From: a virus
Lineage: Duplodnaviria; Caudoviricetes
Strand: one strand, 5' to 3'
IMG/VR virus record: IMGVR_UViG_3300024297_000001
DNA length: 64,000 nt
The position numbers and the translations under genes are program-made. This document shows, piece after piece, positions 1 through 18,350 of this stretch (position 1 is its first letter; every line of letters begins with the position of its first letter). A model generated the notes under the pieces. That model was not told the DNA's origin. It worked only from the letters and a program-made list of their open reading frames with translations, and ran no database searches.

Positions 1-874
1 GTGGAATCCAAAAGCCTTTCCAGTTCTTTCTAATCTTGTTCATTGCGTCTCGATTCAAAGCACAACCTCCTGTTACAGCAAGATTGAAACTTGGATTATT
101 AAACTGTATGCTTGATGTAAGGTTAAGACATAGTTCTTCAAATACATGTTGTACAGCCGCCGCAAGGTTATCAATATCCTTAATCTCTGGTGCCCACCAT
201 TTTAATCCTCTATGGCAGTTCTCCTTGAACTTGATATTACATAATGGATCAAACGATACATCAAAGAAGTCATCGTATAAACGTTGTTTATACTTGTATG
301 GACTACCTGACTTTGCAAGTGTACAAACTACTGCTTCTTGTTTGTTAGGTTCATAACCTAAACGTTGTGTCATTGCACTGTACCAAAGTCCTAAACTGTT
401 AGGATAACTTTGACTGTTAATCTTTGTTAGTGAATCTGACTCACCTTTCCACATTGTTAGTGTTTCAAACTCTCCAATGCTGTCTATACAAATTATGTTA
501 CCGTGATTCCAACCACTTGTGTAATAACCATATGCCGCATGTGATTCGTGATGTGATACAGTGTATATAGGAACATTAACGTTCCACTGCTTTAAATATT
601 TTTTAATATTGTTTTCGTCAAACAACCAACCTTGACCTGCCCACAACTGTCTAATGCTTTTTAACATAGGACGTTCATACCAAACAACGTGATGTGGTTC
701 ACCGAAGTTCTTTCTTGCAACTTCAATAATAGTATGATTGAAGTGCGGATCGTTATCAACGTTACTGAAGTCCTTACTCAGTGCCGCCCACAACAATTCT
801 AACTTGTCATCTTCCTTTTTGAACACAGCCAATGATGCATCATGACTGTTACCTACCATTCCCCAAATTATCAT
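1..874 (-). CDS. Carbamoyltransferase (NodU/CmcH family), N-terminal part, runs off the window edge
   Basis: Not in the ORF track. Manual translation from ATG 874 (ATGA overlap with the upstream stop) gives MIIWGMVGNSHDASLA, SHHESHAAYGYY, DSIGE, SLGLWYSAMTQRLG and TGGCALN, with no stop before position 1. Confidence 0.85.
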   Translation of the reverse strand, partial: MIIWGMVGNSHDASLAVFKKEDDKLELLWAALSKDFSNVDNDPHFNHTIIEVARKNFGEPHHVVWYERPMLKSIRQLWAGQGWLFDENNIKKYLKQWNVNVPIYTVSHHESHAAYGYYTSGWNHGNIICIDSIGEFETLTMWKGESDSLTKINSQSYPNSLGLWYSAMTQRLGYEPNKQEAVVCTLAKSGSPYKYKQRLYDDFFDVSFDPLCNIKFKENCHRGLKWWAPEIKDIDNLAAAVQHVFEELCLNLTSSIQFNNPSFNLAVTGGCALNRDAMNKIRKNWKGFWIP

Positions 875-1116
875 TTTTTACCTCCGCGGTAACGTTTCCA
901 AATCTTGTGTAGTATGTAAAACCATACAGAATTAATTGCTGGTTCTATTATTGCAACTGCTCCTGCTTCCCAGATACTTGCACCTGTGATAGCACTTACA
1001 ACAATCATTGCTATTATAATATGTCCAATAAAAAATATAATGGCGAGTAATAAACTTTCGTCCAAGGTATCTTTTACAACATTCACAATGCCTTTAGTTA
1101 ACTCTGTCATAATCAT
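871..1116 (-). CDS. Small membrane protein, DUF2061-like
   Basis: Two hydrophobic segments ending in IEPAINSVWFYILHKIW. Confidence 0.65.
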   Translation of the reverse strand: MIMTELTKGIVNVVKDTLDESLLLAIIFFIGHIIIAMIVVSAITGASIWEAGAVAIIEPAINSVWFYILHKIWKRYRGGKK

Positions 1117-1227
1117 TTTACTTGTAGATAAACGGATCCCTTTTTTTAAGTTCTTCGATACGCTTCTTCATTCTGCGTTTCTCTTTCCAATCACAATAAG
1201 GCTTTGTGATCTTACCCCATACCTTTT

Positions 1228-2184
1228 TTAACCAAACCATTTTTTACTCCGTAGTTTAATTTTTAATTCATTCTTTTCACTTGATGATACAATTGAATAC
1301 AGTGTATAAATTTTACCATATGCTTTTATAGCGTCATTGACGTCATTGATGTTGTCGCCCCATTCCGGCATACTAATACTCCAACCAAGTTCGATTGCTT
1401 GTTCTACAAGTTTAGCACCTGCCTCATCTCTGTCTGGCACAACTATCTTATTTGTATTTAAACTATTAAGGAGCATGGCCTGTTGATCTTTGACTTCGCT
1501 ACCAAGCAATGCACAGCCTTCTACTGCAATAGCATCAAAAGGACCTTCTACAACTATAGTATGTACACGATTATAATCTTGTGCATCAAGATTGAATACA
1601 TATCCAGGTTGTTGATCACTTAGATATTTTGGATTACCATCTTTGATCTTACGTGCAGTGTATCCTACTATTTCTTTTTTGTGATAGAACGGAACAATGA
1701 TTCTGTCTTTTAATTCTGGTGACCAATGAAAGTTATAATCTTCCAAGTATAAGTTTCTTGATTGTAGATACTGTATAACTTCTATGGGTGTGTCTTTGCC
1801 GATAGGCTTACTGTCTTTGGGTAATTCTTTCTTATCAAACTTAGGCAGTTTTACTTCTATGTCACTCATGCCTACTTCTGCAATTTGTAAACACTGTAGA
1901 GCAAGTTTAGTAATTACGTCATCGGGTGTGTTCAACCATTGAAACAGTTTACGCATTTTATAACTTAACTGTCTGCCTGGAACCCAACTTGCTTTGAAGC
2001 CACAGTTGAAACAATGATAACTTATACCACCTTCACCGTTATTGATTAGTCCGCCACGTTGTCTTTTGTCAGCATTGGTTCCATTGTGTACACAACAGGG
2101 TGCATTGAAAGAAGTCCAACCACTTGGAGTAGTTTTCTTCTTAGACGGTAGATGTAACTGTAGTGTTTCGAATACAATGCTCAT
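1228..2184 (-). CDS. gp61: DNA primase (T4 gp61/DnaG-like)
   Basis: N-terminal Zn ribbon (APCC..YHCFNCG) and TOPRIM motifs VEGPFDA and PDRD. Confidence 0.9.
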   Translation of the reverse strand: MSIVFETLQLHLPSKKKTTPSGWTSFNAPCCVHNGTNADKRQRGGLINNGEGGISYHCFNCGFKASWVPGRQLSYKMRKLFQWLNTPDDVITKLALQCLQIAEVGMSDIEVKLPKFDKKELPKDSKPIGKDTPIEVIQYLQSRNLYLEDYNFHWSPELKDRIIVPFYHKKEIVGYTARKIKDGNPKYLSDQQPGYVFNLDAQDYNRVHTIVVEGPFDAIAVEGCALLGSEVKDQQAMLLNSLNTNKIVVPDRDEAGAKLVEQAIELGWSISMPEWGDNINDVNDAIKAYGKIYTLYSIVSSSEKNELKIKLRSKKWFG

Positions 2185-2190
2185 AATACT

Positions 2191-2219
2191 ATTATAGTAT
2201 ATTATGAGCGAAAAGTCAA
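2191..2219 (-). promoter_or_regulatory. sigma70-type promoter for the primase operon
   Basis: TTGACT-17 nt-TATAAT, ending 6 nt before the primase ATG. Confidence 0.8.
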
Positions 2220-3008
2220 CTAATTTCGGACTAATACTTTATCAATTGTTCCAGAATTTGTTGTTGTATATTTGGTTCTCAAATATGAAAACACACCATT
2301 AAAATTAACTGGAGTAGGTTCAGTTGGATTAGTTAAACTTACAGATGTAATGTCTACCCAATTACTTGGATTTTGATTTTCCAAACTACCTTGGATAGTT
2401 ACTGTACCTGTAAAGTCAGTTGAGTATATCGCCGCAGTGTGCAAAGCATCATTGCCGTTCAGTGCCGCTTCACCAGGTACTGATTCACTGTTGTATTCAA
2501 CTGGGTCAGAGTTTTGAACTTCTGTGAAAGACGTAACGGAGTATGCTTCTTTCGGACCAGGGAATGCTTCGCCGTGCAACTCGATGGTACCAATCATCTC
2601 AAAGTGGCTGTTAGCATAAGTGATTACTTCACTGTTGTCACTATCCTTAGTCAAGTAAATTGTATAAGTTAGTAACTGATCGTCTAAGTTTAGTAAGTCG
2701 TTTGCAGTAATATTAACTTCAAACTGACCTTTATAGTTAGGCGTTGATGTTTCTTTTATTGTTCCTGTTTTAGTAAGCACTTGTGTTTTAGCATGATCGA
2801 ACGCTGTAAAGTGTGGCGTATAAGTATTAAGTATGCTTATAGGCTTACTGTCATTATTTTTTATTTCAAAGGTCAACTTGTTGTCGATACCTTTAAAAAT
2901 TTTTAAGTTTTTCTGGTACACTTGTCTTAACTCCGTTGTTGTGCCCGTAGTCACATTTGCTACGAGATTGGTTTTGGCATTGACTAAATATCTGGGTATA
3001 AGTTGCAT
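2220..3008 (-). CDS. Hypothetical protein, probably virion-associated
   Basis: 262-aa Thr/Asn-rich ORF with TAAATA 5 nt upstream of the ATG. Function not recognised. Confidence 0.6.
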   Translation of the reverse strand: MQLIPRYLVNAKTNLVANVTTGTTTELRQVYQKNLKIFKGIDNKLTFEIKNNDSKPISILNTYTPHFTAFDHAKTQVLTKTGTIKETSTPNYKGQFEVNITANDLLNLDDQLLTYTIYLTKDSDNSEVITYANSHFEMIGTIELHGEAFPGPKEAYSVTSFTEVQNSDPVEYNSESVPGEAALNGNDALHTAAIYSTDFTGTVTIQGSLENQNPSNWVDITSVSLTNPTEPTPVNFNGVFSYLRTKYTTTNSGTIDKVLVRN

Positions 3009-3026
3009 AATACTATTTATTAGAGA

Positions 3027-3398
3027 ATGATGTTAAGAAAAGATATAGAAGATAAATTTCCGTTTTTAAGTGTTGTTACCTATGGTGGCAATGAGTACGT
3101 TGGTATAGTCTGTAATCAGGATAATTTTATTACAAGCATGTACGTTTACTCAGAGTTACAAACAGATAGGCACAGAGACTTGTTCTTAGAGATGGGTGAA
3201 ACATGGTGGTGGGAAAGCAACCGCATGATACCTATCAACATCTTTTTACGCAAAGAGATGGACAAGTTTAGATACTGTTTAGTTAACATGAACAGCAAAG
3301 ACGTAAAAATTGTTCACGGACCTACAGTGAACTTAAAGAACCTTACACTCAAAAGAGTGAAAAGACGTTCAGTACAATTAGTAAAAAAGCCTAAATAA
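3027..3398 (+). CDS. Hypothetical protein
   Basis: 123-aa ORF filling the gap between two minus-strand genes and abutting the convergent stop at 3399. Confidence 0.7.
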   Translation: MMLRKDIEDKFPFLSVVTYGGNEYVGIVCNQDNFITSMYVYSELQTDRHRDLFLEMGETWWWESNRMIPINIFLRKEMDKFRYCLVNMNSKDVKIVHGPTVNLKNLTLKRVKRRSVQLVKKPK

Positions 3399-3959
3399 TT
3401 ATTGTTGGATCTGTTCGCAGAGCAGATTCATGTGGACTACGATTGCTTGTGCATAAGCCATCGCATGTGCCTTCTTAAAGTAATAGGAACCGTCTTCAGG
3501 TTTTACCCATACTTCTTGTAGTATCTCTTTCCAAGGCTTGTCCTGTAGATGTCGCTTGGCTGGTCTTATTATTGCTAACGTTGCCGCCAACTGTTGTATG
3601 CTTGTTGGCTTCAACTTCTTTAGAAGAGAACTGTGTTCTCCTACGTGAAACAATTTGTTGCTGAATTCTGGAGCGGTGAGTAAATCCCATAATGGTTCCT
3701 TTTTCATGAGTTCTAAAAGATGCTGTTCATCTTTTACATCTTTATATATCGAAACATTTAGAAAGTCTAATTTAAAGTAACCTCTATCTTCTGCTGTCTT
3801 ATGTTCGATCGTAGATAAGTTGTCCACAGGATTGTGTGGAATCTCAGTTGTGTATACACCAGTGTTGTGTTTCTTGCCTGTGTTAAGTTTAGCGACACGA
3901 TGCTTGATCTTACCAAGCACTACATCTCTATCAGCAAAGTCTATATCTATATCAGGCAT
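3399..3959 (-). CDS. Miniature family-C DNA polymerase (DnaE catalytic core)
   Basis: PDIDIDF, GYFKLDFL and FKKAHAMAYA match the DnaE motifs PDxDxDF, KxDFL and FNKSHAxAY, but in only 186 aa. Confidence 0.8.
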   Translation of the reverse strand: MPDIDIDFADRDVVLGKIKHRVAKLNTGKKHNTGVYTTEIPHNPVDNLSTIEHKTAEDRGYFKLDFLNVSIYKDVKDEQHLLELMKKEPLWDLLTAPEFSNKLFHVGEHSSLLKKLKPTSIQQLAATLAIIRPAKRHLQDKPWKEILQEVWVKPEDGSYYFKKAHAMAYAQAIVVHMNLLCEQIQQ

Positions 3960-3960
3960 T

Positions 3961-4053
3961 TTATTTTGGCTCTTCTTTGTCCATGCACCATAGCATGAAT
4001 ACGGGTATTACGTAACACGCACATAGAAATAATATTCCGTACAGTATTACCAT
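3961..4053 (-). CDS. 30-aa hydrophobic microprotein
   Basis: MVILYGILFLCACYVIPVFMLWCMDKEEPK. Overlaps the upstream stop and ends 1 nt before the mini-DnaE ATG. Confidence 0.4.
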   Translation of the reverse strand: MVILYGILFLCACYVIPVFMLWCMDKEEPK

Positions 4054-4124
4054 TTTGGTTTGTACAATGTTTGTATTGTACCATCTCCGGGTATGTAGTA
4101 TCCTTCTATTTCTCTTTTATTCAC
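4047..4124 (-). CDS. 25-aa microprotein
   Basis: GTG start overlapping the upstream stop; VNKREIEGYYIPGDGTIQTLYKPKW. Confidence 0.3.
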   Translation of the reverse strand: MNKREIEGYYIPGDGTIQTLYKPKW

Positions 4125-4458
4125 CCGCTTCGACAATACTACGGTCGATTTCTTTTTCGACTTCTTTTTCTTTTTTGTCTTCATTTTGTCCCACCAAGTT
4201 AGTTGGTTTGTTTATCGGCATACCACTTCTATTGAACCATCTATCATCATCTGTAACATACACATGACTTCTAAACTTTGTCTTGTCAATGTCTTTTAAA
4301 GTGATTGCACGTTTATGAATACCACCTTTATACTGTGTGTAATCTCTGTTGATCAATCTCATTGATCCTCCACTTGCAGGACTGCCGTAAAGTCTATCTA
4401 TACTTTCTCCATCAGGTCCCATATGGTTACTGATTACTTGATAATTGTTGTTATTCAT
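4117..4458 (-). CDS. Hypothetical early protein
   Basis: 113-aa ORF immediately downstream of a consensus sigma70 promoter. Confidence 0.65.
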   Translation of the reverse strand: MNNNNYQVISNHMGPDGESIDRLYGSPASGGSMRLINRDYTQYKGGIHKRAITLKDIDKTKFRSHVYVTDDDRWFNRSGMPINKPTNLVGQNEDKKEKEVEKEIDRSIVEAGE

Positions 4459-4465
4459 AGTTAAT

Positions 4466-4494
4466 ATTATACACGTTTAATTGGTTAAAGTCAA
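4466..4494 (-). promoter_or_regulatory. sigma70-type promoter
   Basis: TTGACT-17 nt-TATAAT. Confidence 0.8.
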
Positions 4495-5178
4495 TCACAA
4501 GTTAGCCTTTTGGGCAATCTCTTTTACCAATTCTACATCAACAGGACTGCGTTTGAATCGTATTGCCCAATGTTGTGGATCCATTACTGCATATACAATC
4601 CCAAGTTGTTCATCGTTGAATTTGGATAGCATCTCTTTGCCACTTGCACAATTTAATACAAGCCATGCACTAATCTTACCATCACGTAAATGTTGTGTTA
4701 CTCTGTTAAGACTTGCGTATCTAAAATAATCATTCCATGGTGCTTCTTGTTCATCTGCCCATTCCATCATAGTTTTGATTGAACGTTCTACTGCTGTTTC
4801 AACCCCTTCCTTCTTTAGGATATCAATTGCATACTTTTCATACAGTTCATCTCTACACCAGTGATCAAGTTTAACTCCACTTGTTACTACATAGTCAATA
4901 TACTTTTCTGGATACAGTGGTCGGACGTTGTTTACAAAAGATCCAAACTTTACAAATGCATTATAGTATTGACTGTCACAGAAGTCTTGATATGTCTTTT
5001 CTTTCTTAATGTTTTGACACAGTACATAGAATCTTGTAAAAGCATAATAACCTAACTGTACATGCTTTTCATTCTTTTGCAATGCACGTCTTTTCTTTTC
5101 GCACATATGAACTGCAAGAGTCTTTTCTCTTGAGTATGATGTACCGCAGTATGGACATACAAATTTTTTGTCAGACAC
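4495..5178 (-). CDS. Hypothetical protein with an N-terminal C2H2-like zinc finger
   Basis: FVCPYCG..LAVHMC. The likely start is GTG 5178, just after the upstream stop; the ORF track extends it to 5256. Confidence 0.7.
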   Translation of the reverse strand: MSDKKFVCPYCGTSYSREKTLAVHMCEKKRRALQKNEKHVQLGYYAFTRFYVLCQNIKKEKTYQDFCDSQYYNAFVKFGSFVNNVRPLYPEKYIDYVVTSGVKLDHWCRDELYEKYAIDILKKEGVETAVERSIKTMMEWADEQEAPWNDYFRYASLNRVTQHLRDGKISAWLVLNCASGKEMLSKFNDEQLGIVYAVMDPQHWAIRFKRSPVDVELVKEIAQKANL

Positions 5179-5179
5179 G

Positions 5180-5995
5180 TTAGTAACCCCTTGCGTATCT
5201 TTTATTTGTATCGTAACCTGCTTCAAGAATTGCTTTTCCGATATCTTTGTAGTCATTTACTTCCTCTAATACTTTTTGATATTTTTGTGCAAACGCTTTA
5301 TCAATACCTACACCTAACATTGGTGATATACGTTTTTGCAAATATTCATAATACATCATAGGCGTTGGGTGATAATCTAATGTAGGTTCTTCATCTAAGT
5401 TACCTAACTTTGCACCTTTGAACGATAAACGGTTATCATGCATCTGCACCATCCAGTTGTACATATCCTTTTCAATCCAGTAATTGTTTTGTAAGATCTT
5501 TTTGTACGGTGCCCATTGCGGATCTTGTACTATTTCTTCTCTCATGTCTGTACCAAAGATCATTATGATTCTTGCCTTACAACTTGTTCTTGCAATACCT
5601 ATTGCGGCGTGTATAGAGTTAAATGTATGCATCATATACGAACGTTCACTCCATAACTTATTCATTACAAAGCCTTTAACAGAATCAGCGGCATTGTCTA
5701 CAAATATGTTGCCACCTGGATACCAACTCTCTGGCAAGTCTGGATCCCACTTGTGATGATCAAACCTGTGATAGTCAGTCCATTGTATAATAACTGTGTC
5801 CTCAGTAGTAAAGTCATGACGTAAACATGCTTCACTGAAGCGTTCCATAATCTGTCTATTGCCAGCACCTCTGTTACCCCAGTTGTAAAATTCTTGATAA
5901 CTTTGTCCTAAGATGTCTGCCCATGTTGGCCAATGATATCTTGTTAGGCTACAACCAAATGTAAACAGTCTTCCGTTCTTTTTAATTATGGCCAT
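5180..5995 (-). CDS. SGNH/GDSL-like protein
   Basis: LFTFGCSLT (block I), NWGNRGAGN (block II) and a distal DYHP. Paralog of 60894..61826. Confidence 0.6.
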   Translation of the reverse strand: MAIIKKNGRLFTFGCSLTRYHWPTWADILGQSYQEFYNWGNRGAGNRQIMERFSEACLRHDFTTEDTVIIQWTDYHRFDHHKWDPDLPESWYPGGNIFVDNAADSVKGFVMNKLWSERSYMMHTFNSIHAAIGIARTSCKARIIMIFGTDMREEIVQDPQWAPYKKILQNNYWIEKDMYNWMVQMHDNRLSFKGAKLGNLDEEPTLDYHPTPMMYYEYLQKRISPMLGVGIDKAFAQKYQKVLEEVNDYKDIGKAILEAGYDTNKRYARGY

Positions 5996-6428
5996 TGAAT
6001 TCCTCTATAAATTTTTCTATATCTTTTTTCTTATTCATATTAACTAACATCTGTATTTCATCTGCTTTCATGTTAGGAAATATCTTTTCAAGTTCTTTGC
6101 CTGTTTTGTTTGTTGCACCTTTTTTCTTTTTGTAACCAATCCATTCATGATATTGAATAGACTTGTTTTCATTAGATGTCATGCATAGCAGTTGCCATAA
6201 TAGTTTTTGATGTTTAGCAACTGTAAAATAATTCTTGTTATAATATTCATTAGTCTTAAACACTGCAAGTTCTTGTGCTTCACGTTTACCTTTGACTACA
6301 CTGCAATATCTATTAAGCAAAAAGAAACTAACGGCCTTACGTTGTTCATCAGTAAGTTCGTCCCATACTTCCTTTGCATTCATATCGATTGCACCAAGTA
6401 TATCTTTTAAAGGTAATTTATCAGCCAT
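5982..6428 (-). CDS. Putative clamp-loader small subunit (gp62-like)
   Basis: Size and the FFLLNRY..NEYYNKNYF..HQKLLW pattern resemble T4-like gp62. Confidence 0.5.
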   Translation of the reverse strand: MADKLPLKDILGAIDMNAKEVWDELTDEQRKAVSFFLLNRYCSVVKGKREAQELAVFKTNEYYNKNYFTVAKHQKLLWQLLCMTSNENKSIQYHEWIGYKKKKGATNKTGKELEKIFPNMKADEIQMLVNMNKKKDIEKFIEEFNGHN

Positions 6429-6999
6429 TTAGTTTTGTCTCTATTGAATATGTCATACCTATTGTAACACGAAACGGAACAGTAGTCAAGTCCATCGTGT
6501 GCCAATAGTGTGCAGGAAACAGTACACCATTTCCTCTTTTATATTTTGTTCTTGTTAATTCGGTCTTACCATCTTCTTCAAAAAATATTGTATCACCGTC
6601 TGCATCATTAACATAGTAAACAAACGTCCATAGTCCAGGCTCGTTGTTGCTTACATCAGTGTGCGGACCATAGTAAACATTTTGTACAGTACCATTTAGT
6701 CTTGTACGTGTTACTGTATTGATCTGTGCATCTGGTATTGTGTTAGGAATAATATCACGTGTCAGTGCAGTGTGCAATAACTTTGTAAGTTCTTTGTGGT
6801 CATCAAGTATATTACTTTGTGTACAAAACATAACATCAGTGAATAGTGCAGGAGTCTTGTATTTGTCTCCTTCTTCGTGTTCTTCTGGTACACTTACAAA
6901 CTGCCAATTAACATCTTTAGTTTGATCCTCAATGTATTGTACAAGCCAACTTGGAAACGGATTTTCAATATTAAAAATGTTATCTTTGCTTACTATCAT
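6421..6999 (-). CDS. 2OG-Fe(II) oxygenase
   Basis: PHTD, FVYYVNDADGDT and VLFPAHYWH give the HxD...H triad, followed by the distal R. Confidence 0.85.
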   Translation of the reverse strand: MIVSKDNIFNIENPFPSWLVQYIEDQTKDVNWQFVSVPEEHEEGDKYKTPALFTDVMFCTQSNILDDHKELTKLLHTALTRDIIPNTIPDAQINTVTRTRLNGTVQNVYYGPHTDVSNNEPGLWTFVYYVNDADGDTIFFEEDGKTELTRTKYKRGNGVLFPAHYWHTMDLTTVPFRVTIGMTYSIETKLNG

Positions 7000-7181
7000 C
7001 TTTTCAAAAACCTTTTCGCGGCATCAATTGGATTACGTAAACCTTCATACGTTTTATCAATGAAGCCTATATGTTTAGTTAGTTTGTTGTCTAATGCTTC
7101 AAGTGTTAATTGTAATTTGTCAACCTTTACATTTAACAATTCTATATCTCTCATTAGTTTTTCTTCGTTGCTTGGACTCAC
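6996..7181 (-). CDS. Small coiled-coil hypothetical protein
   Basis: 61 aa with heptad-like character, overlapping both neighbours. Confidence 0.55.
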   Translation of the reverse strand: MSPSNEEKLMRDIELLNVKVDKLQLTLEALDNKLTKHIGFIDKTYEGLRNPIDAAKRFLKR

Positions 7182-7285
7182 TTACCTAACTCCTCTATAG
7201 TTTTTGTATCCTCAAAGTCTACTCCTGTGTCTGTGTAAACTGCCACTGCCGCAAATAATACTAAAATAAAAATTAATAATCGCAT
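7178..7285 (-). CDS. 35-aa secreted or membrane microprotein
   Basis: MRLLIFILVLFAAVAVYT. The ATG forms a TAATG overlap with the upstream stop; the track's longer ORF is the same frame extended. Confidence 0.5.
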   Translation of the reverse strand: MRLLIFILVLFAAVAVYTDTGVDFEDTKTIEELGK

Positions 7286-7998
7286 TACTTTCCTTTCTTT
7301 TTCATTCGGTTTATAAAACGTGCATAACTTCCTACGCCCATCATAAGACTGTTCATCTTGTTTAGTTCCTCTGATGAAACCAAATGTGTTTTTAATTCGA
7401 TCCGTTTTTCTGTTAGTGGTACCAAGTGTAGCCACGGATCACCTGGCTCAATAGTTAGTTCACTGTTGAATGGTACCATCAAGTTAACAATAGTTGCATG
7501 TTGATACTTGAACTCTGATATAGCAGGAACTGTCCAATACTCTATTGGATTAGTCATATGCCATTGCGGACTTGTCCATAACCATTTGGTTCCGCTTGTA
7601 TCTCTTATCTGCCACGGACTCATTACCTTGCCATGAAACATATTTGGCTTGTGGTGTGCATAGTCTTGTGGGTCATGTGGTATAACAGGACTGCCTTCTG
7701 GATACGTTTGTATCATTGCTTGATCAGGTTGATCAAATGTTTTAATTTTTAATTGCATCCAGGCAGGAAACATAACGCCTGTTGTTAGTAATTCGTTTAC
7801 GTGTGGACAACGTTTTAGTGTAGCATTGTCTAAGCCTTGATATGTCATGCTATCAAACTTACGTGTTGATGCCATCTTCTTCCACCATTCAGGCATTGTG
7901 TCCTTGGCAAGTTCAGGCTCATACGCATCATAGATAACACGCTGATCAGTAAAACAATCTAATGTTATTGTGCTTGGCTTATTAAAAATACTAAACAT
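7285..7998 (-). CDS. Hypothetical protein (PxWxK..KxCP family)
   Basis: MPEWWKK..TLKRCP..GVMFPAW. Paralog of 49852..50553. Confidence 0.7.
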   Translation of the reverse strand: MFSIFNKPSTITLDCFTDQRVIYDAYEPELAKDTMPEWWKKMASTRKFDSMTYQGLDNATLKRCPHVNELLTTGVMFPAWMQLKIKTFDQPDQAMIQTYPEGSPVIPHDPQDYAHHKPNMFHGKVMSPWQIRDTSGTKWLWTSPQWHMTNPIEYWTVPAISEFKYQHATIVNLMVPFNSELTIEPGDPWLHLVPLTEKRIELKTHLVSSEELNKMNSLMMGVGSYARFINRMKKKGK

Positions 7999-8626
7999 CT
8001 TGCCTCGTTATATGGTCGTTGTCTGTTTGGTGTGGGCGTTCTAACTCACAGTGCCAATTCATACCCATTACAATTCTACGTTGTGTAGATTTGTTAGGTT
8101 GACTCCTATGACTCAACCAACCAGGAAAGAACACTACATCGCCCTGTTCGACTTCAACCTCTGTAAAGTAGTTATGAAGTTTTGATTGATTTTGAGCGAA
8201 ACGTGGATAACCTGCAAACAACGTTCTTTCTTTATTTTCAAATTCTAAGTTGCCACCATTCTCTGGTTGCTGTATGTACACACTACACACAAGATGACTA
8301 TTTCCGTGATCGTGTGTGTCAGTCCATGCACCTTCAAAGTGACTATTGACCCAACTCTTTGTTACACCAAATGTGTTGTAGTTCAAGTCCCATGCTTCTA
8401 AAACTTTGTTTGCTTGTCCTTTTAACCAACCGTTCAATAGTCTTGTTTCTTCCCATAAGTGTGGAGCATCAAGATGACCTGTACTTGTAATACCACCATC
8501 TTGTTCTACTTCGCCTGGATCAATAATAGTGTCTAATAGTTTTGCACTACGTTCAGCAATAGCAGTTAAGTCAACAGGACAGTTGACCTTATAAACTAAA
8601 TGAGGTGATATTAAAATAGGTTCCAT
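7991..8626 (-). CDS. 2OG-Fe(II) oxygenase, TIGR02466-like
   Basis: SWVN, HDHGNS, SVYIQ, GDVVFFPGWLSH and RIVMGMN. Confidence 0.85.
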   Translation of the reverse strand: MEPILISPHLVYKVNCPVDLTAIAERSAKLLDTIIDPGEVEQDGGITSTGHLDAPHLWEETRLLNGWLKGQANKVLEAWDLNYNTFGVTKSWVNSHFEGAWTDTHDHGNSHLVCSVYIQQPENGGNLEFENKERTLFAGYPRFAQNQSKLHNYFTEVEVEQGDVVFFPGWLSHRSQPNKSTQRRIVMGMNWHCELERPHQTDNDHITRQDV

Positions 8627-9189
8627 TATGTCTCTTTCTTGAATAAAGGATCTGAATCTCTTTTCTTTCTACATTCCATACTTACACGTCTCTCTTTCCA
8701 AAACATGTTATTCATTATCCTAAAGTCAGTAACTGCTTCTACTTTGTTTGTCCACCATTCTTGACTTTCAACAATCAAGTGTGCGTTACGTCCATCGGGT
8801 AAATTCTTACCTGCAGGTTTTGTATCAATGATCAAGTATGCAGTATTCAATGTTAGACTTTCAATATCTTTCAACACATTGTCAATTAAGTCTGGTTCAA
8901 TGTGTTCTAAAACATCTGCACATATAACTAACTCCGCAGGAGCATTTGGTCTTTTAGAAAACTTTGCATAACCTGGATCGTAATTAGTGCAACGTATGTG
9001 GGCATATCGTTTTGATATGTTTTCAAGCACATGACCTTTGCCACAACCGTAATCAATAATACTACTACATCGGTTGTTTGCTAACCATTGATCGATGTGT
9101 TTGTAACGTCCACTATCACCAAAAGAACTTTTCTGCTTGTGCAATAATTGTAATTGTCTTGCATAAGAGTCAGTAACTGTTTTAGTCAT
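8626..9189 (-). CDS. Class I SAM-dependent methyltransferase
   Basis: IIDYGCGKG and VICADVLEHI. Confidence 0.85.
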   Translation of the reverse strand: MTKTVTDSYARQLQLLHKQKSSFGDSGRYKHIDQWLANNRCSSIIDYGCGKGHVLENISKRYAHIRCTNYDPGYAKFSKRPNAPAELVICADVLEHIEPDLIDNVLKDIESLTLNTAYLIIDTKPAGKNLPDGRNAHLIVESQEWWTNKVEAVTDFRIMNNMFWKERRVSMECRKKRDSDPLFKKET

Positions 9190-9696
9190 TTAAAATAACT
9201 CTCCGTAGTCAATAGTTTCAATCTGTCTTGAAACATCTTTAATAAAAAATGCACATAACGGATTCTCACCTTCTGTAATTGGTACACTTAATAATTGACC
9301 ATTTTTAGTTTTAGGTACATGCCATTTTACATCATTATAAAAGTTTGTAACTTTTAAATCTGCAAAGTCTGGTTTGTAACTCTTTAAGGGATTAAAAACA
9401 AATGCTTCAAAACCTCTGTCGTTGATACTTGTCAACGGAAGTATTTCTAAGTCATTACCTGTCTCTGAATCTCCTACTGCAATATGCCAATCAAGTGGCA
9501 TACTAATCTCTTTGCCGTTAATCTCCATAACAATAGCCGGCGAACTAAAACTTTCTAAAAATATTAGAGGTATAAAAAAGAAATCAGGATTTTGAGGATC
9601 GCTGTTATCTAATACACTGAATCTAATATCTTCTTCAATCTGTTCTGGCAGGTTGTTAAGTGAAAAGGCTTTGTTATCTAACGTTAATATATTCAT
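9190..9696 (-). CDS. Hypothetical protein, possibly a degenerate Hint fold
   Basis: 168 aa directly downstream of uvsW; see findings. Confidence 0.6.
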   Translation of the reverse strand: MNILTLDNKAFSLNNLPEQIEEDIRFSVLDNSDPQNPDFFFIPLIFLESFSSPAIVMEINGKEISMPLDWHIAVGDSETGNDLEILPLTSINDRGFEAFVFNPLKSYKPDFADLKVTNFYNDVKWHVPKTKNGQLLSVPITEGENPLCAFFIKDVSRQIETIDYGELF

Positions 9697-9705
9697 TTTT
9701 TTCCT

Positions 9706-11166
9706 TTATTTTTGCCAATCTATTTTTTCAATAGTGAATGGATATTCTGCTTCTTTGTAAAACTTTTTACGTGATGTTAAATGTCTCTTTGCATATTTGC
9801 ATGTAGACGTAACGTCCCATATCTGTACAAAGTCCTTATCTTGTGCCTTTCTTATGCCTCTGCCAATTGATTGAATTACTCGGACAAAACTCTTGCCTGG
9901 CTCGAGTAAAATTAAATTAAAGATACGCGGTATGTTAATACCAACAGCCGCAACTCCATATGTTGCAATAATAACTTTGTTTGTACCTTCTTTAATTTCA
10001 TCATATGCATCTTTTCTATCTGCAAGTTTAACATCGCCTTTGACGAACACTGCATCTGGAACGAGATCCAATAGTTTTTCTCCTGCTGATATCCTATCAA
10101 CAAGTATTAGTGTATTACCTGATTGTGAAACAGATTTTACTAACTTACCAATGTATTCTAAACGACTTTCGTTTGTTGTTAGATACTTCAGTTCACTTTG
10201 ATAATCTCTGTGTACTTGTGTGTCAATCATTTGTAATATGTTAACATGACACTTACTCAATACACCTTTGTCTTGTAATTCTTTTGCACTGATGTTTCCT
10301 ATTACAGGACCTAAACTTGCAAGTATGCTTTGAAACTCAAATTGTTCCTTAGGTATAGTTCCTGTTAGTCCCCAACGTATAGGTGCATTCTTTAAATTTT
10401 GTGTTAGTAGTTTCTTAAGTACATCTGCTTTTGCTTGGTGTACTTCGTCAATGATAATAGTTTTCACGTCATCTAAAAACTCTGCAAGACTTAAAACACT
10501 TTGTCCGTCTTTGTTACGTTTGTCAAGTATGTTTAAACTTTGCCAAGTACAAATAGTATGTGTTCTACCTAATTCTTTTCTATCACCAAAGTATACACCT
10601 ACATCAAGTCCACAGTTAACATAGTCTTCTTCTGTTTGTGTAACAAGTGATTTGTTAGGAACAATAACCAACGTCCGACCAAGTTTCTCTGTAATGTGTG
10701 ATAGACATGCAGTAATGATTGTTTTACCTGCACCAGTTGCAACTTCTTGTAATGCTTGTGGATTGTCTAAGAAGTTATTAATTGTTTCTACCTGATAGTC
10801 ACGTAATACAATAGGCTGTCCTTCAAGTTGATGTCCTTTAGGCCAACTACGTGCCGCGAAATAGTTTTCATCAATCTTACTAAATTTTAAATTGTGTGTT
10901 TCTCTGTTGTCTACAATCTCTGCAACTTCAACACCTTGCTCATTCAATACCTTTAACACAACATCAAGATGATTAATGTAACCACTACCACCTAAACCAA
11001 AGAAGCCTACAGTGCCGTCCCATCTACCAAGTTTGTACTGTGGCAAGTAACGTGCATACGGAACTTGAAACTTTAGTTTGTTTGCAATCTTTCTACGAAC
11101 GTCAACAGATAAGTTTTCAACCTTAAAGTTTACTTCGTCATGTATTACTATTCTGCAACTGCTCAT
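9706..11166 (-). CDS. uvsW: UvsW-like SF2 DNA helicase
   Basis: LRDYQ, ATGAGKT, IIIDEVH, GLTGT and QSIGRGIR. Confidence 0.9.
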   Translation of the reverse strand: MSSCRIVIHDEVNFKVENLSVDVRRKIANKLKFQVPYARYLPQYKLGRWDGTVGFFGLGGSGYINHLDVVLKVLNEQGVEVAEIVDNRETHNLKFSKIDENYFAARSWPKGHQLEGQPIVLRDYQVETINNFLDNPQALQEVATGAGKTIITACLSHITEKLGRTLVIVPNKSLVTQTEEDYVNCGLDVGVYFGDRKELGRTHTICTWQSLNILDKRNKDGQSVLSLAEFLDDVKTIIIDEVHQAKADVLKKLLTQNLKNAPIRWGLTGTIPKEQFEFQSILASLGPVIGNISAKELQDKGVLSKCHVNILQMIDTQVHRDYQSELKYLTTNESRLEYIGKLVKSVSQSGNTLILVDRISAGEKLLDLVPDAVFVKGDVKLADRKDAYDEIKEGTNKVIIATYGVAAVGINIPRIFNLILLEPGKSFVRVIQSIGRGIRKAQDKDFVQIWDVTSTCKYAKRHLTSRKKFYKEAEYPFTIEKIDWQK

Positions 11167-12416
11167 ATGGCTTGTATTCCTGTCGTGTATGTGTTATCTT
11201 TGTGCCTTGTGTATCTTGAGATAATGCTATCTTCTGCTGTCCAAAATATTTTCAAATCAAATCTTTCTACGTATTCTCTTGCAACATTGTGAGATCCTCT
11301 TGAATTGCCAAGCACAAGTACACTTACTGGATCAAAGTCAGACTTTAAAATAGGTTTTGTTATTTTCTTTCGATTAGCAACAACAAGTCTTGTTGAATTG
11401 CTTATACTATTATTTAATGCCTTGTCCCTGACGAATTGGTTAAATTCACCATTGTTCTTATTGTCCAATCTAAACATAACGGATATATCTTGATTATGTA
11501 AGAAACCTTTAGTTGCATGATATAACATGCTTAATTGATCTGTTGCTGATTCAGGCTCCAACAATACAATACAAGGGAACCTGTTTAGTTCGTGTAGGCT
11601 TTCAAGCACATGATCCAATGACCATTCATTTGAATTAACAACAACTGAACTATTCTTTCTTTCTAAAATTTTGTGTGTAAGTGTTGAAACTTGTGGACAC
11701 GAAAAGTCTGGAAAATGATGTAAGCCATACAAGTAACGCTTGTCCCAAAGTTCAAGCATATTCTCATCTGGATTAGGATATCTATCAGATAACTTTTGAA
11801 TTAATATTTCATTCATGTTCTTAAATTGATTCTCATATATGCCTGGAACAATATTATCCTTGTTCATATCAAACTGTACAAGTTCGTCATAGTATTCTTG
11901 TACGTCCTTATCAATTTCAAAATCTTCTTTAAATTTATATGCAACAGTGCATACTTTGTAAATGTTTTGTTCGTTTGCTTCAAAGTGATGTGTATGCTTT
12001 TCGTAGTAGTACGTGTCGTCATTATCCTTTTTTAGATCTTGTACGTGTTCAATTACATCATTACTAAAAGGAAATCTTATGCTTACATAATCTAATTTAT
12101 TCTTTTGTGTAAACTTAACCCAATGACTTTTGTCTACTTGTCTGTAAGGTTCTCTAATACTGTCTACGTGTTTGGTAACATCAATATTTTGATTAGCAAA
12201 CTGCTCTGTGTAATATTCAAGAATTAACTTTTTAACAAGTTCGTGTTGCTTTTCGGTTAATGCAGATCCTTTGAATACCTGACGTGCAATGCTTGATAAG
12301 ACTTTTGAGTTGTCAGGATGTAATTGAAAGCATTTATCTTTCCAATGCTTACCCGGCAAGACTGTTAATCCTGCAAGTGCTTCTAATAAATCTTCAACTT
12401 TGTATTCGTGGTTCAT
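11163..12416 (-). CDS. Hypothetical early protein, co-transcribed with uvsW
   Basis: 417 aa with ATGA coupling to uvsW and a sigma70 promoter upstream. Confidence 0.7.
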   Translation of the reverse strand: MNHEYKVEDLLEALAGLTVLPGKHWKDKCFQLHPDNSKVLSSIARQVFKGSALTEKQHELVKKLILEYYTEQFANQNIDVTKHVDSIREPYRQVDKSHWVKFTQKNKLDYVSIRFPFSNDVIEHVQDLKKDNDDTYYYEKHTHHFEANEQNIYKVCTVAYKFKEDFEIDKDVQEYYDELVQFDMNKDNIVPGIYENQFKNMNEILIQKLSDRYPNPDENMLELWDKRYLYGLHHFPDFSCPQVSTLTHKILERKNSSVVVNSNEWSLDHVLESLHELNRFPCIVLLEPESATDQLSMLYHATKGFLHNQDISVMFRLDNKNNGEFNQFVRDKALNNSISNSTRLVVANRKKITKPILKSDFDPVSVLVLGNSRGSHNVAREYVERFDLKIFWTAEDSIISRYTRHKDNTYTTGIQAI

Positions 12417-12441
12417 CTGTGATTCCTATACTATAAAACTT

Positions 12442-12470
12442 ATTATACAGGATTATAGTAAAGAAGTCAA
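12442..12470 (-). promoter_or_regulatory. sigma70-type promoter
   Basis: TTGACT-17 nt-TATAAT, followed by an AGGA ribosome-binding site. Confidence 0.8.
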
Positions 12471-13283
12471 GTGTTTTATTGGGGTTCCTTGAGATATTTC
12501 CGGCACACTCCATTCCGTGTATGCCAAATTGTTAAGCCATTGTTCTCTATCAGGCATTAACGGATTGTTAATGTTGGTCAAACTTTTCATGCTCATGTCC
12601 CATGCAAGACTGCTTTGACCCGTGAATACAGGAATACCATTCATGACTGCCTGTGTTGCAGGATTGCTTGACCAATTTATTAAAGCATATACATCTTCAA
12701 ACTGTAAGTCAAAATCATCATAGGTGCCTGGTATTTGTTTTGGTGTTTGTACTTCTATGCCTGGTATTTTAATTTTGCAACGTGGGTGAGGTCGAACAAC
12801 TATTTCTCTGTCCGTCCACATCTGAACGCCTCGTATCATGTCAGACACGAACTGTTGTATTGGTGGCATGCCTTCCCATTGTTGGCTCTTGTCATGCTGA
12901 GTACAAATTACAATCTTACTGCCGTCAGTGTTCCAAGGTTTAAGTTTTAGTCCTAACTGTTCAGCACGATCACTTTTGTTATTACCATCTGGAAATACAG
13001 CATCTCCGTTTATACCATCAATACCAACCTTCCAAGTAGTGCCTCTAAACAATGCTCCTACTTCAAGTACAATAACTTTTTTATTTTGTTTTTTAAAATG
13101 ATCCCAAACGTTTTTGTTTGCTGACATTCTGCCATGCCATAACACACTCCATATAACGGCAACGTCTGCATCTAAGTTGTTATATGTAACTTCGTGTCCT
13201 AATGTGCTTACACCTTGTGCGAATGCTTCAAAGACAGGCTTTGAATTTAATGCACCATTGTGTGTAAACAGACTAAACTTCAC
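12453..13283 (-). CDS. GT-B protein resembling capsule-synthesis KpsC/KpsS
   Basis: IVVRPHP..NWSSNPATQAVMNGIPVF. Confidence 0.6.
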   Translation of the reverse strand: MKFSLFTHNGALNSKPVFEAFAQGVSTLGHEVTYNNLDADVAVIWSVLWHGRMSANKNVWDHFKKQNKKVIVLEVGALFRGTTWKVGIDGINGDAVFPDGNNKSDRAEQLGLKLKPWNTDGSKIVICTQHDKSQQWEGMPPIQQFVSDMIRGVQMWTDREIVVRPHPRCKIKIPGIEVQTPKQIPGTYDDFDLQFEDVYALINWSSNPATQAVMNGIPVFTGQSSLAWDMSMKSLTNINNPLMPDREQWLNNLAYTEWSVPEISQGTPIKHLTSLL

Positions 13284-14104
13284 CTTGCATCTTTCCAGTA
13301 TTCTTCGTGACGCTTTCTAAATAAATCTTGAAGTTTACTTTTGCCTACTTCTTTACGAGCACCTTTGAGATGATCAAAGTATGCACCAAGTTCTGTGTTA
13401 ATCAAAGGATGTCCTTCACCTTTAACAAGATGTCCACTAAGGTCTGTGATGTTAGGGTGTTGTAATCTAATCTTCTTTAACACTTCATCAAATACATAAC
13501 TGTCATGCCATTCTTCCATTTTGAAAATGCCGTTGTCTGCATCTTCATAGACACGTTCAAACTCTTTAAGAAAATCAATAGCACCTTGTTGTTTGATATA
13601 CAATGCATAAAATCCACACTCAGGCCATTTTCTACCACGTCCTAAATATGCTAACCAGTTTTGCTCTGGAAAGAAACTTACAAGTCTATCTTGTGTGATA
13701 GGACTATGACAAACTGTATCTCCGTCAATCCATATTACTAAATCGTATTCCGTTTTGGTACATGCGTCATACACTGCATACACTTTGTTTGCAAATCTAA
13801 TAGCGTCCCACTTAAACTTCTTGTGCCAATCACGTGGACGTCTTGCTTTTATCTCTGGTGGACATATACCGTTTGCTTTAGGTTCGTCTTTCCACTTTGC
13901 CTTAAACGCATTTAACTTTGGTAACACTGCTTTAGCATCTACAATCTGTATTCTTGTAGGTTGAGGATTAGTAGGTGTACAATCTTCTGTGTACACAATT
14001 AGATCAATCTGTTCGTCTACGTTTTGTGCAAACGTATCGATCATACGTTGACCGTACTGTTCTAATCCTGCTTGATGAAATGTTGTTAGTGCAAGTACCT
14101 TCAT
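13280..14104 (-). CDS. GT-A nucleotide-diphospho-sugar transferase
   Basis: WIDGD (DxD), ECGFY and WHDSYVFD. The likely start is ATG 14104 (ATGA overlap). Confidence 0.7.
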   Translation of the reverse strand: MKVLALTTFHQAGLEQYGQRMIDTFAQNVDEQIDLIVYTEDCTPTNPQPTRIQIVDAKAVLPKLNAFKAKWKDEPKANGICPPEIKARRPRDWHKKFKWDAIRFANKVYAVYDACTKTEYDLVIWIDGDTVCHSPITQDRLVSFFPEQNWLAYLGRGRKWPECGFYALYIKQQGAIDFLKEFERVYEDADNGIFKMEEWHDSYVFDEVLKKIRLQHPNITDLSGHLVKGEGHPLINTELGAYFDHLKGARKEVGKSKLQDLFRKRHEEYWKDAR

Positions 14105-15024
14105 GTGTACTGCCTCATGTGTCTCCAACAACTACCGTCCTTTAGTTCTTGTAGTGTCCAGTGACATTGTGCAAGTTTTTCAAGCCATGGACCTCTATCA
14201 AATTCATCTGGTGTTGCAAGATTTTTGAAATTATAATTAGCGACATCTTTTGCTTGACTACGTCCTGCATCTGTTAAGAAGATAGGAACACCTTCAATAG
14301 CGGCAATGATTGTTGGACTACTGTTATGTCCAACACACAGTCTTGCACCTTTCAAGTCTTCGAATATACTTTTGGTTCTACTAACAGTAACGTTCAAATC
14401 TCTTATCTGTGGCTCGTATGTATCTTTGTGTTTGTCGCCTGGATGAAAACGCACAACAATAGGTGCGTCAATGTTTTGTCTAATCTTTTCTACAGTTGCA
14501 CGTAACCATTGCAGTACATTTTGTCCTTGCATACTCCAACCGCCATTTCTTTGACAAGCAATTAAAATATGTCCTTCATTTTGTATACGCCAAGGTTTTA
14601 CATCAATGTTTAATGCATTTTTCATTTTCTGCCAACGCAGTTTATCAACATTCTCTGGACCGTTACAATATTCACCTGTGTTAGCAAAGATACCATCGTA
14701 ACTATAACGCAAATAAGTTTTGCTGTTGTTTTTATCAAACGCAAGAAATAAATTACTGTCAACAATAATACAACGTTTGCCACGTCTTAATTGATTATCA
14801 TAAACTTGTCTACGTAATTTTAAGTGTGGTGTGCTTTTACTGTTAGCATGAACAAAGCCTTGTATAACTGCAACGTCTGTGTCCATAGGATGATATGTGT
14901 TAATAATTAGTCCTCGGTCACCAATAAGATTCACACCTTCAATAAAATTTTTAAGCAGTGCTGGCTTTTCCGGATTTGAATTTCCTGGCGGAATTACTTT
15001 CATGTATGATGCTACTGTTAACAC
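14101..15024 (-). CDS. GT-B protein resembling KpsC/KpsS
   Basis: IVVRFHP..HNSSPTIIAAIEGVPIF. Confidence 0.6.
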   Translation of the reverse strand: MLTVASYMKVIPPGNSNPEKPALLKNFIEGVNLIGDRGLIINTYHPMDTDVAVIQGFVHANSKSTPHLKLRRQVYDNQLRRGKRCIIVDSNLFLAFDKNNSKTYLRYSYDGIFANTGEYCNGPENVDKLRWQKMKNALNIDVKPWRIQNEGHILIACQRNGGWSMQGQNVLQWLRATVEKIRQNIDAPIVVRFHPGDKHKDTYEPQIRDLNVTVSRTKSIFEDLKGARLCVGHNSSPTIIAAIEGVPIFLTDAGRSQAKDVANYNFKNLATPDEFDRGPWLEKLAQCHWTLQELKDGSCWRHMRQYT

Positions 15025-15842
15025 AATCCGTACTCCTCTATAATTGCTAATGCCGTTCCGTCTTCTAACTCCCTTGTGTTAAAATTACAGTATGCTAACC
15101 AGTTTTGCCAAGCAACAACTTTGTCAGGATCTGGTCTATATGGATTTTCAATGTCTGAAATATTTTTTGTACACAATGCATCAGCGGCGCCTGGTGCTGT
15201 AGCAATAGCAGGTATTCCTGAACTAATTGCTTCTGTTGCCGCAATACTATTGTAAGTTACAAGTGCATAAATTTTTTCACGATCAATTTGAGCAGGCACA
15301 CTATTATCACCTACACGTAATACTCTTCCTACTTTATCACGTACAATAATTTCTCTGTCTGTATGTTTTTTTAATTCTGCCATAGTTTCAGTTAACCATT
15401 GATCTCTGGTTATACCATAATACATACAAGGTTTTTCTGATGGCGTTACAACAAGAATAGGACCATTATGATTTTTCCAACCTCTAAATCTTAACTTGTC
15501 AATTGCTCCTGGCAATCTAATAAATCTATCTTTTGGCAAGTCCCACCTTGGACTAAAATGCTGTACATCATTCTTTACAACTCTATGCCAGTCTTTGCGT
15601 TTCTGTAAGTTGCCCATATACCCAGTGTCAATATAATAGAAAGTTCTGTTTTGTTCTGTAGCCACTTTCATAACTTTACGCTCAGTAAGACCTCTTACTA
15701 TAACAGGAGTATGTGGATGATCTGTATCTTTTTGTAATTCTTTTAAACTTGTAGGTATAGTTTTTTCAAAACAATTTGTTAATAGTTTAGAAATAGCATC
15801 ACTACTATCTGCTACAAAACATTCGGGGTATTTTTTATACAT
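15018..15842 (-). CDS. GT-B protein resembling KpsC/KpsS
   Basis: IIVRDK..YNSIAATEAISSGIPAI. Confidence 0.6.
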   Translation of the reverse strand: MYKKYPECFVADSSDAISKLLTNCFEKTIPTSLKELQKDTDHPHTPVIVRGLTERKVMKVATEQNRTFYYIDTGYMGNLQKRKDWHRVVKNDVQHFSPRWDLPKDRFIRLPGAIDKLRFRGWKNHNGPILVVTPSEKPCMYYGITRDQWLTETMAELKKHTDREIIVRDKVGRVLRVGDNSVPAQIDREKIYALVTYNSIAATEAISSGIPAIATAPGAADALCTKNISDIENPYRPDPDKVVAWQNWLAYCNFNTRELEDGTALAIIEEYGLC

Positions 15843-16521
15843 TTGTATACATCATGTCTGTTAAAAACTTTTTCCAAACACCGTGGTATGAACAATGTCT
15901 GTAATTCTCAAACCAAGGACCGCCTTCTGTATAGTGCAGTGCCTTTGGGGTTCCGTCTTCAGGTTCTTGGTACCAATCAACAAGCCAGTTCCATTCGTGA
16001 CTGATTTGTCCTACTTCCTCGTCCTTGAGCCAACTAAATCTGTGAAAGTATTTTCCATCGAAGTTAGGATTGTTTACACTGTCAATTGTTACTGCTTGGT
16101 TACTTGGATGTCCGCAGTTCCATAACACAACACTTGACCAGTTCTTACGTGGATATTGTGTTTGTACTTGTCCGTCCATCTTTGTTCCAGGCTTAGGTGT
16201 GTAATCATGTTGGGCACACATAACAGCATACTTGTCGTCTGCAAGATCAAATAAATTTTTTACATTCTCTGTAAACACAATGTCGCTGTCAATAAACAAT
16301 GCCCAGCCTTCGTAATTCATTAAGTGTGGAATAAGAAAACGTGTAAACGTAAATTCTGTACTTGCAAGTTTATCCTCGCCTCTCCAATACAACTTATCAT
16401 TTCTTAATTCGTTTTGTTTCAACGGAATCACTTCTGCTGTTGGGCATTGTGATTCAATGCTGTGCTTACAAACTTGATAAGCAATATCTTCTCTTGTATC
16501 GTAACCTACAAAAATTTTCAT
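15835..16521 (-). CDS. Glycosyltransferase, GT8-like
   Basis: IFVGYD, FTFTRFLIP, FIDSD, RKNWSS and LHYTEGGPWF. Confidence 0.8.
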   Translation of the reverse strand: MKIFVGYDTREDIAYQVCKHSIESQCPTAEVIPLKQNELRNDKLYWRGEDKLASTEFTFTRFLIPHLMNYEGWALFIDSDIVFTENVKNLFDLADDKYAVMCAQHDYTPKPGTKMDGQVQTQYPRKNWSSVVLWNCGHPSNQAVTIDSVNNPNFDGKYFHRFSWLKDEEVGQISHEWNWLVDWYQEPEDGTPKALHYTEGGPWFENYRHCSYHGVWKKFLTDMMYTNV

Positions 16522-16522
16522 T

Positions 16523-17272: not shown

Positions 17273-17334
17273 AAATGTATTTAATTTAGTGCCAGATAAC
17301 ATTGTTTATTCCTGGTTGCTCAATAAGTAATTAC

Positions 17335-17928: not shown

Positions 17929-18350
17929 CAAACGAAGAAGTTCTAACACTAATCGAGAACTCAAATCAAAATAAGTTTAGCAATGTATTATTGTTACCCT
18001 TAGGAGATGATGTGTTAGACAAGCATATAGAACAATGGTTATTGGAACGTGTAAACGTGGTTAAAATGCCCGTGTATACCCCTGAATCATTAGAGTATGC
18101 TGTTGCCCGTGTAGACTATGCTTTGTGTACTGTAGGGCCCTTAAAATGCGTCTTAGACGCCAGTATACCTATGTTTATCAACATGCATGATACTGAGTTT
18201 GACATAGTAAATAAAGATAATAGATTTGTGTTTGATCCATTTAGAAATGAAGACAAGACCAAAATTGATTACACATCTGTATTAGATTTAGCAACCAAAT
18301 GTATAAAGAAAGACTTGGATAAACACTGGATACCATATTATGAAATGTAG
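17925..18350 (+). CDS. Hypothetical protein
   Basis: 141 aa with overlap coupling on both sides. Confidence 0.6.
   Translation: MTNEEVLTLIENSNQNKFSNVLLLPLGDDVLDKHIEQWLLERVNVVKMPVYTPESLEYAVARVDYALCTVGPLKCVLDASIPMFINMHDTEFDIVNKDNRFVFDPFRNEDKTKIDYTSVLDLATKCIKKDLDKHWIPYYEM

Follow-up and report, generated by a model that had tools for sequence, protein, structure and literature searches.

A small DnaE-like gene of an uncultured marine phage lineage as the probable C-terminal subunit of a split, minimal Pol III alpha-like nucleotidyltransferase

Results

The DnaE-like gene and its neighbourhood

The DNA examined here, which we call the window, is a stretch of 64,000 nucleotides from the IMG/VR virus record IMGVR_UViG_3300024297_000001 (Caudoviricetes). 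Our analysis centred on a minus-strand open reading frame (ORF) of 186 amino acids with its ATG at 3959 and its stop codon at 3399-3401. This ORF and the genes and site closest to the argument are as follows.

1228..2184, minus strand: gp61-type DNA primase (Toprim), 1.2 kb downstream of the DnaE-like ORF and in the same direction
2220..3008, minus strand: virion-structural-like protein (PHROG 14467), part of the conserved gene order
3027..3398, plus strand: convergent ORF of 123 aa (PHROG 11637, E 4e-34), its stop abutting the stop of the DnaE-like ORF
3399..3959, minus strand: DnaE-like ORF of 186 aa, very probably the C-terminal unit of a split minimal Pol III alpha (hereafter the C-half), with metal-binding palm strands and a reduced fingers module
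4117..4458, minus strand: ORF of 113 aa without Pfam or PHROG match, directly upstream of the C-half
4494-4466, minus strand: predicted sigma-70-like site, TTGACT-17-TATAAT, 11/12 consensus matches
4495..5256, minus strand: C2H2 zinc-finger protein (PHROG 11058, E 4e-61)
9706..11166, minus strand: UvsW-like SF2 helicase, at the head of a conserved replication/recombination block

The gp61-type gene is the primase that the first-pass annotation had already placed near the ORF. We found that the gene order running from uvsW to the C-half, the convergent small ORF, the virion protein and the primase is kept in phages PAC2, RaK2 and Atu_ph07 as well as in the window. A small opposite-strand gene is annotated at the equivalent spot in PAC2, RaK2 (ORF125w) and Atu_ph07 (gp073), and the tail-to-tail pair that it forms with the C-half is conserved across very distant jumbo phages. 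A C2H2-annotated gene lies upstream of the C-half in PAC2 too, there as its immediate neighbour, and the C2H2 protein is possibly a functional partner of the C-half. A consensus scan of the 157-nt spacer 5' of the C-half ATG revealed no promoter-like site; the nearest is the predicted site at 4494-4466, which could drive both the 113-aa ORF and the polymerase half.

Several other genes of the window were noted. Two 2OG-Fe(II) oxygenase-like genes and a SAM methyltransferase gene lie at 6421-9189 (minus strand), between the UvsW-like helicase and the C-half. Carbamoyltransferase genes are found at 2-874 (minus strand; partial, at the edge) and at 59078-60892 (minus strand; full-length and Nol-like), and a DUF2061 membrane protein is encoded at 871-1116 (minus strand), between the primase and the partial carbamoyltransferase. 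In PAC2, RaK2 and Atu_ph07 the primase is followed by a gp41-type helicase; in the window the DUF2061 gene and the carbamoyltransferase are found there instead. The window also encodes a long tail sheath protein and a large terminase. Megablast of positions 1-20000 of the window against the phage collection gave no match.

Homology of the ORF to Pol III alpha

Family assignment of the ORF came from PHROG 11778 ('DNA polymerase'), which matched at an E value of 9.4e-63, residues 3-184 of the protein aligning with profile positions 8-195 of 197. A Pfam search of the ORF gave no match, and a search of PDB sequences with the ORF as a single query returned a chance match only, so that a profile was needed to reach Pol III alpha. 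The only PDB sequences matched by our 77-member family profile were Pol III alpha chains, and on E. coli DnaE the match comprised three collinear blocks (399-418, 540-641 and 740-769). The AlphaFold model of the ORF had a pLDDT of 96.2, and the top 13 matches in a Foldseek search with this model were all Pol III alpha. Using VIA-align, we aligned 184 residues of the model with Taq Pol III alpha (3e0d, residues 461-838) at a Z score of 9.9 and an rmsd of 3.4; the score was 9.1 for E. coli DnaE (2hnh, residues 400-781) and 7.8 for PolC, while the best unrelated chain reached 3.5. The kinship with the DnaE palm that had been proposed on first pass was therefore borne out by structure prediction. 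Taken with the profile match, the model indicates that the ORF is DnaE from the strand bearing the catalytic DxD to the helix that follows FNKSH.

Two segments within this span have been greatly reduced. The thumb region (E. coli 419-539) has shrunk to 36 residues in the ORF, and E. coli residues 642-739, which include YQEQ and RRAMGKK, have shrunk to about 11. In terms of the domains of Lamers et al. 2006, we take the deleted parts to be the thumb and the index finger, and the kept part to be the middle finger. As all of the ORF falls within E. coli DnaE 400-781, it contains no PHP, clamp-binding or OB part. The absence of these three parts had been noted before; to them we add the thumb. The ORF thus has the canonical catalytic aspartate triad of family C (D3, D5 and D65) and lacks the canonical DnaE/PolC layout, in which the PHP domain, the thumb, complete fingers, the clamp-binding part and the OB domain occupy one chain. 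Our searches of the relatives likewise gave no PHP match above the cut-off and no additional piece of the fingers.

We used the C-half as a TBLASTN query and identified 96 records in the phage collection, 94 of which covered at least 80% of the query. Among the matches listed, all C-half records were from jumbo phages, and every genus in the tally was likewise jumbo. Identity to the window protein was 52% for PA5oct-like phages, 50% for Atu_ph07 and 41-45% for phages of the RaK2, 121Q, GAP32 and CBB types. In the protein database at least 8000 clusters at 90% identity matched the C-half, mostly from marine metagenomes and nearly all 186-192 aa long, and the family comprises 428 representatives at 50% identity.

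Active-site motifs, conservation and selection

The first-pass annotation had assigned two catalytic aspartates to PDIDIDF (residues 2-8 of the ORF) and the third to KLDFL (residues 63-67). For comparison, the K-12 gene places the corresponding motifs of E. coli DnaE at 400-406 (PDFDVDF) and 553-558 (KFDFLG), with GRGS at 361-364, and the catalytic triad of the E. coli enzyme is D401, D403 and D555 (PMC8485763). The motifs that we located in the ORF, all on the minus strand, are listed below.

3939..3953, minus strand: DIDID, residues 3-7; D3 and D5 are the equivalents of D401 and D403 of E. coli
3858..3869, minus strand: HNTG, residues 31-34, within KKHNTG; H31 is kept in 76/77 homologs and G34 in 75/77
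3765..3773, minus strand: KLD, residues 63-65; K63 and D65 are the equivalents of K553 and D555 of E. coli, D555 being the third catalytic Asp
3561..3566, minus strand: RP, residues 132-133; corresponds to the E. coli FRPGP motif (638-642) and is invariant
3465..3479, minus strand: FKKAH, residues 161-165; corresponds to E. coli FNKSH (756-760)

The assignment of the three aspartates proved correct: all align with the E. coli triad, and D3, D5, D7, K63, D65, R132 and P133 are invariant in all 77 homologs, which are 30-96% identical. The estimated spacing of about 60 residues against about 150 was also accurate, since we measured 60 residues between the second and third aspartates of the ORF and 152 between D403 and D555 of E. 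coli DnaE. We take K63 to be the lysine that contacts the triphosphate. H165, kept in 75 of the 77 homologs, aligns with E. coli H760, which touches the sugar of the incoming dNTP and is the proposed steric gate (PMC8485763). Compared by eye, outside any tool alignment, KKHNTG appears to resemble GKHAGG (509-514) of E. coli DnaE, which forms the strand after the thumb.

Median pairwise dN/dS in the family was 0.15, calculated from 445 pairs with dS between 0.1 and 1.5, and there was no sign of relaxed selection on the aspartates. Across the 77 homologs the C-half is 179-216 aa long and its first aspartate lies 1-17 residues after the start; in the window ORF two residues precede it. The ATG start is identical in 78 of 81 close loci, the window included. 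The ORF is a genuine, intact, DnaE-derived gene under purifying selection.

These data also bear on whether the ORF might be an inactive remnant, or a decoy that binds or poisons parts of the host replisome without catalysis. Such a role would suit a piece of a host-type replicase carried by a phage whose bulk synthesis does not depend on it. We consider it very improbable because the catalytic residues are invariant, the dN/dS value is low and the family is as large as described above. Moreover, the regions of DnaE that bind epsilon, the clamp and tau are in the PHP domain and the C-terminus, outside the 400-781 span that the ORF covers.

A complementary N-terminal half in related phages

The ORF chain starts after the GS motif and does not include the nucleotide-binding part of the palm with GRGS. 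The GS loop, with its helix, belongs to the nucleotide site in enzymes of the Pol-beta nucleotidyltransferase fold. We examined the window for this part by TBLASTN with the N-terminal half (N-half) from three phages and obtained chance-level matches only, with no other DnaE piece in the 64 kb. The first-pass statements that the ORF has its own start and stop and that no DnaE fragments flank it in the window were therefore accurate. It had named complementary DnaE fragments elsewhere as what would refute its reading, and such a fragment is present in the relatives, where a second small gene ends exactly where the ORF starts.

In PAC2, a PA5oct-like phage, this second gene was found by Pfam DNA_pol3_alpha at a distance of 43 kb from the C-half. 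It encodes 169 aa, is annotated as a 'DNA-pol3-alpha domain' protein and ends ...GVGRGSS...KEFLK-stop, while the PAC2 C-half starts ...DVDID; the end of the N-half is the point where E. coli DnaE runs into PDFDVDF. Both halves were also present in each of four marine contigs (G003, G004, G007 and G008). In G003 and G004 the N-half is an open frame of 188 codons (a gene of ∼185 aa) that matches Pfam positions 19-95 and ends ...WREFLR. The two halves are 122 kb apart in G004 and about 120 kb apart in G007, these being the cases in which a single linear contig gives both positions. In the phage collection the N-half was found in the jumbo genera that also have the C-half, and the numbers of N-half records by genus equal those of C-half records (Escherichia 34, Pseudomonas 11, Erwinia 8, Salmonella 8, Xanthomonas 4 and Yersinia 4). 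The N-half query also matched full-length DnaE of other phages, as expected of a homolog.

The four marine contigs that carry both halves each encode an intact PolB of 890-899 aa; none was found in the 64-kb window. The separate main replicase supposed in the first-pass annotation is thus present in the genomes of relatives, and the C-half itself sits within a replication gene block. In PAC2 the T4-type PolB (L007, 201926-207152) is cut into genes of 803 and 379 aa by a Hef-like homing endonuclease gene. A further relative (G002; contig of 262 kb, rated 73% complete) contains the C-half, and we did not find the N-half or PolB in it. As PolB is 28 kb from the N-half in G004, the two genes most likely lie in the part of G002 that is missing. 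One other candidate DnaE piece was considered, a PHP-like match 3 kb upstream of the C-half in G004. With 14.7 bits it was below the cut-off, and the window ORFs that we judged to be at the equivalent distance upstream, which include the two 2OG-Fe oxygenases, give no PHP match; we rejected it as a chance match.

The N-half is central to whether the 186-aa protein could be a self-sufficient, streamlined polymerase or terminal transferase acting next to the replicase without a partner. Several features fit such a protein: the ORF has its own start and stop, the triad is invariant, purifying selection is strong and no DnaE piece lies nearby in the window. Nevertheless, the ORF corresponds to E. 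coli 400-781 only, without the GS-motif segment, and in relatives this segment is a separate co-occurring gene that is sometimes fused to the C-half, so we regard self-sufficiency as improbable. Accordingly, of the description 'streamlined rather than broken', what stands is that the gene is DnaE-derived, intact and selected; what does not is that 186 aa make a complete enzyme, as the GS half is missing.

Natural single-chain fusions

In three proteins of 375-376 aa (P0226, P0272 and P0273) the N-half continues in frame into the C-half through a linker of 10 residues. These proteins are 78-81% identical to one another and come from ENA and Logan assemblies, on metagenome contigs of 2.4-5.8 kb. 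The Pfam DNA_pol3_alpha match spans the junction of the two halves in these proteins, and only in them did we find the GS motif and the carboxylate triad in one chain; the window ORF has the triad without the GS motif. The fusions are Rosetta-stone evidence for a single enzyme made from the two genes. Our search of IMG/VR found no fused form. A model of the fused form, made with an alignment of the N-half only, had a pLDDT of 46.6, too low to show how the halves pack.

The closest C-half relatives of the fusions (P0274-P0282, 50-58% identity) are split forms. Our search for longer relatives of the C-half returned a single odd protein of 425 aa (P0271, on a 1.4-kb contig), in which an unrelated N-terminal part of ∼280 aa precedes a C-half without the DxDxD start. 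Another protein (P0262, 233 aa) consists of the first ∼105 residues of the C-half followed by an unrelated tail. These two may be artefacts of assembly or gene calling.

Trans-spliced split DnaE genes occur in cyanobacteria, and the two phage halves might by analogy be joined post-translationally by a split intein. The likelihood of this is negligible. The N-half stops right after ...EFLR, the C-halves have only the 1-17 residues given above before the first catalytic aspartate (two in the window ORF) and the fused forms join the halves by the short linker; there is no room for intein pieces on either half and hence no intein at the split.

Comparison with known family C enzymes

A split minimal Pol III alpha of group 2.2 jumbo phages was described from comparative genomics by Iyer, Anantharaman, Krishnan, Burroughs and Aravind (2021, Viruses 13:63; PMC7824862). 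The split enzyme is said there to accompany a family B polymerase, and it is suggested that it might act in the synthesis of one strand or in repair. The window ORF agrees with the split enzyme in its family (PHROG 11778), its DxDxD start, its length and its primase neighbourhood, and the relatives of the window agree in having a distant N-terminal unit and a family B polymerase. It differs in coming from a marine lineage that is uncultured and very abundant in ocean metagenomes, and the passages of the 2021 paper that we consulted make no mention of single-chain fusions such as the three found here. Since the kind of enzyme was already described in 2021, the ORF adds a marine member and is not a new system. 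Our literature search found no bench work on the split enzyme, and the PA5oct omics paper does not mention it.

Compared with bacterial DnaE and PolC (E. coli 2hnh, Taq 3e0d, M. tuberculosis 5lew and PolC 9qrn), the ORF has the same palm strands with the aspartate triad and the lysine and the same RP and F-x-K-S-H finger motifs, with Z scores of 9-10 over all 186 residues. It differs in keeping only ∼186 of the ∼380 residues of DnaE 400-781, and in lacking the PHP domain, the GS-motif half of the palm, the thumb, the 643-739 segment and the clamp-binding, OB and tau-binding parts.

Full-length DnaE-like polymerases are known from Gordonia, Streptomyces and Bacillus phages and from group 3.2 jumbo phages such as phage G. 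They are homologous to the split form, and were reached by the N-half query and by the fold search. Each of these enzymes is one chain of 800-1200 aa that includes a PHP domain and serves as the main polymerase, in contrast to the two-gene minimal form that stands beside PolB. The split-intein DnaE of cyanobacteria resembles the phage form in that a family C polymerase comes from two distant genes. However, the cyanobacterial genes carry the halves of a splicing intein, whereas the minimal phage form is split between the GS and DxD motifs without an intein. The cyanobacterial split is also much further along the protein, near residue 774 of the Synechocystis DnaE.

Discussion

We conclude that the ORF is very probably the C-terminal subunit of a two-subunit, minimal family C (Pol III alpha-like) nucleotidyltransferase of T4-related jumbo phages, a reading that stands on homology, fold, conservation, the split seen in relatives and the fused forms. 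The C-half would supply the beta-sheet with the three metal-binding aspartates, the presumed triphosphate-contacting lysine and a reduced fingers module, in which the RP and F-K-x-S/A-H motifs, including the sugar-contacting histidine, are kept. The N-half of ∼185 aa would supply the GRGS loop and the helices of the same palm and would hold the triphosphate. The two halves most likely join non-covalently to form one active site of the Pol-beta fold.

Most likely, the two-subunit enzyme extends a primer terminus with deoxynucleotides in short, non-processive patches beside PolB. Addition of dNTPs to a primer is suggested because the sugar-contacting histidine is kept and the gene is placed in a primase/helicase block; short, non-processive synthesis is suggested because the thumb, the RRAMGKK segment and the contacts with the clamp and the exonuclease are lost. 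The extension, gap-filling or tailing role put forward in the first-pass annotation is possible, and would concern the two-subunit enzyme, not the C-half alone.

Templated synthesis is not assured, since the enzyme has neither the thumb nor the 643-739 segment in which YQEQ and RRAMGKK lie. The two-subunit enzyme might be real and yet carry out untemplated tailing, make a signalling nucleotide, or nucleotidylate a protein or a modified base. Apart from the loss of the thumb and of the index-finger-like RRAMGKK segment, such activities would fit a phage that, judging by its relatives, already has PolB, and a window with many genes for modification enzymes (carbamoyltransferases, 2OG oxygenases and a methyltransferase). 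Against them, what is kept of the fingers contains the invariant RP motif together with the sugar-contacting histidine, the gene belongs to the conserved primase/helicase/UvsW block, and the model can be superposed over its whole length on Pol III alpha with bound DNA (3e0d and 4iqj). We therefore think a non-templated enzyme unlikely.

Returning to the two-subunit, primer-extending enzyme, we offer only tentatively the stronger proposal that the two small proteins, ∼370 residues together, are a true template-directed DNA polymerase with a dedicated job beyond that of PolB. If this were true, it would be by far the smallest family C polymerase, and its job might be to take over the primers made by the primase or to copy the modified DNA of the phage. 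The natural single chain of 375 aa would then be both a ready test object and a model of the ancestral Pol III core.

For annotation, our results mean that neither half alone should be labelled a DNA polymerase or a pseudogene. The abundance of the family in ocean metagenomes, a split point fixed between the GS and DxD motifs and the existence of natural single-chain fusions all make the enzyme easier to test. What the family presents is a family C active site of about 370 residues in two chains, which is strongly selected in thousands of giant phages that encode PolB.
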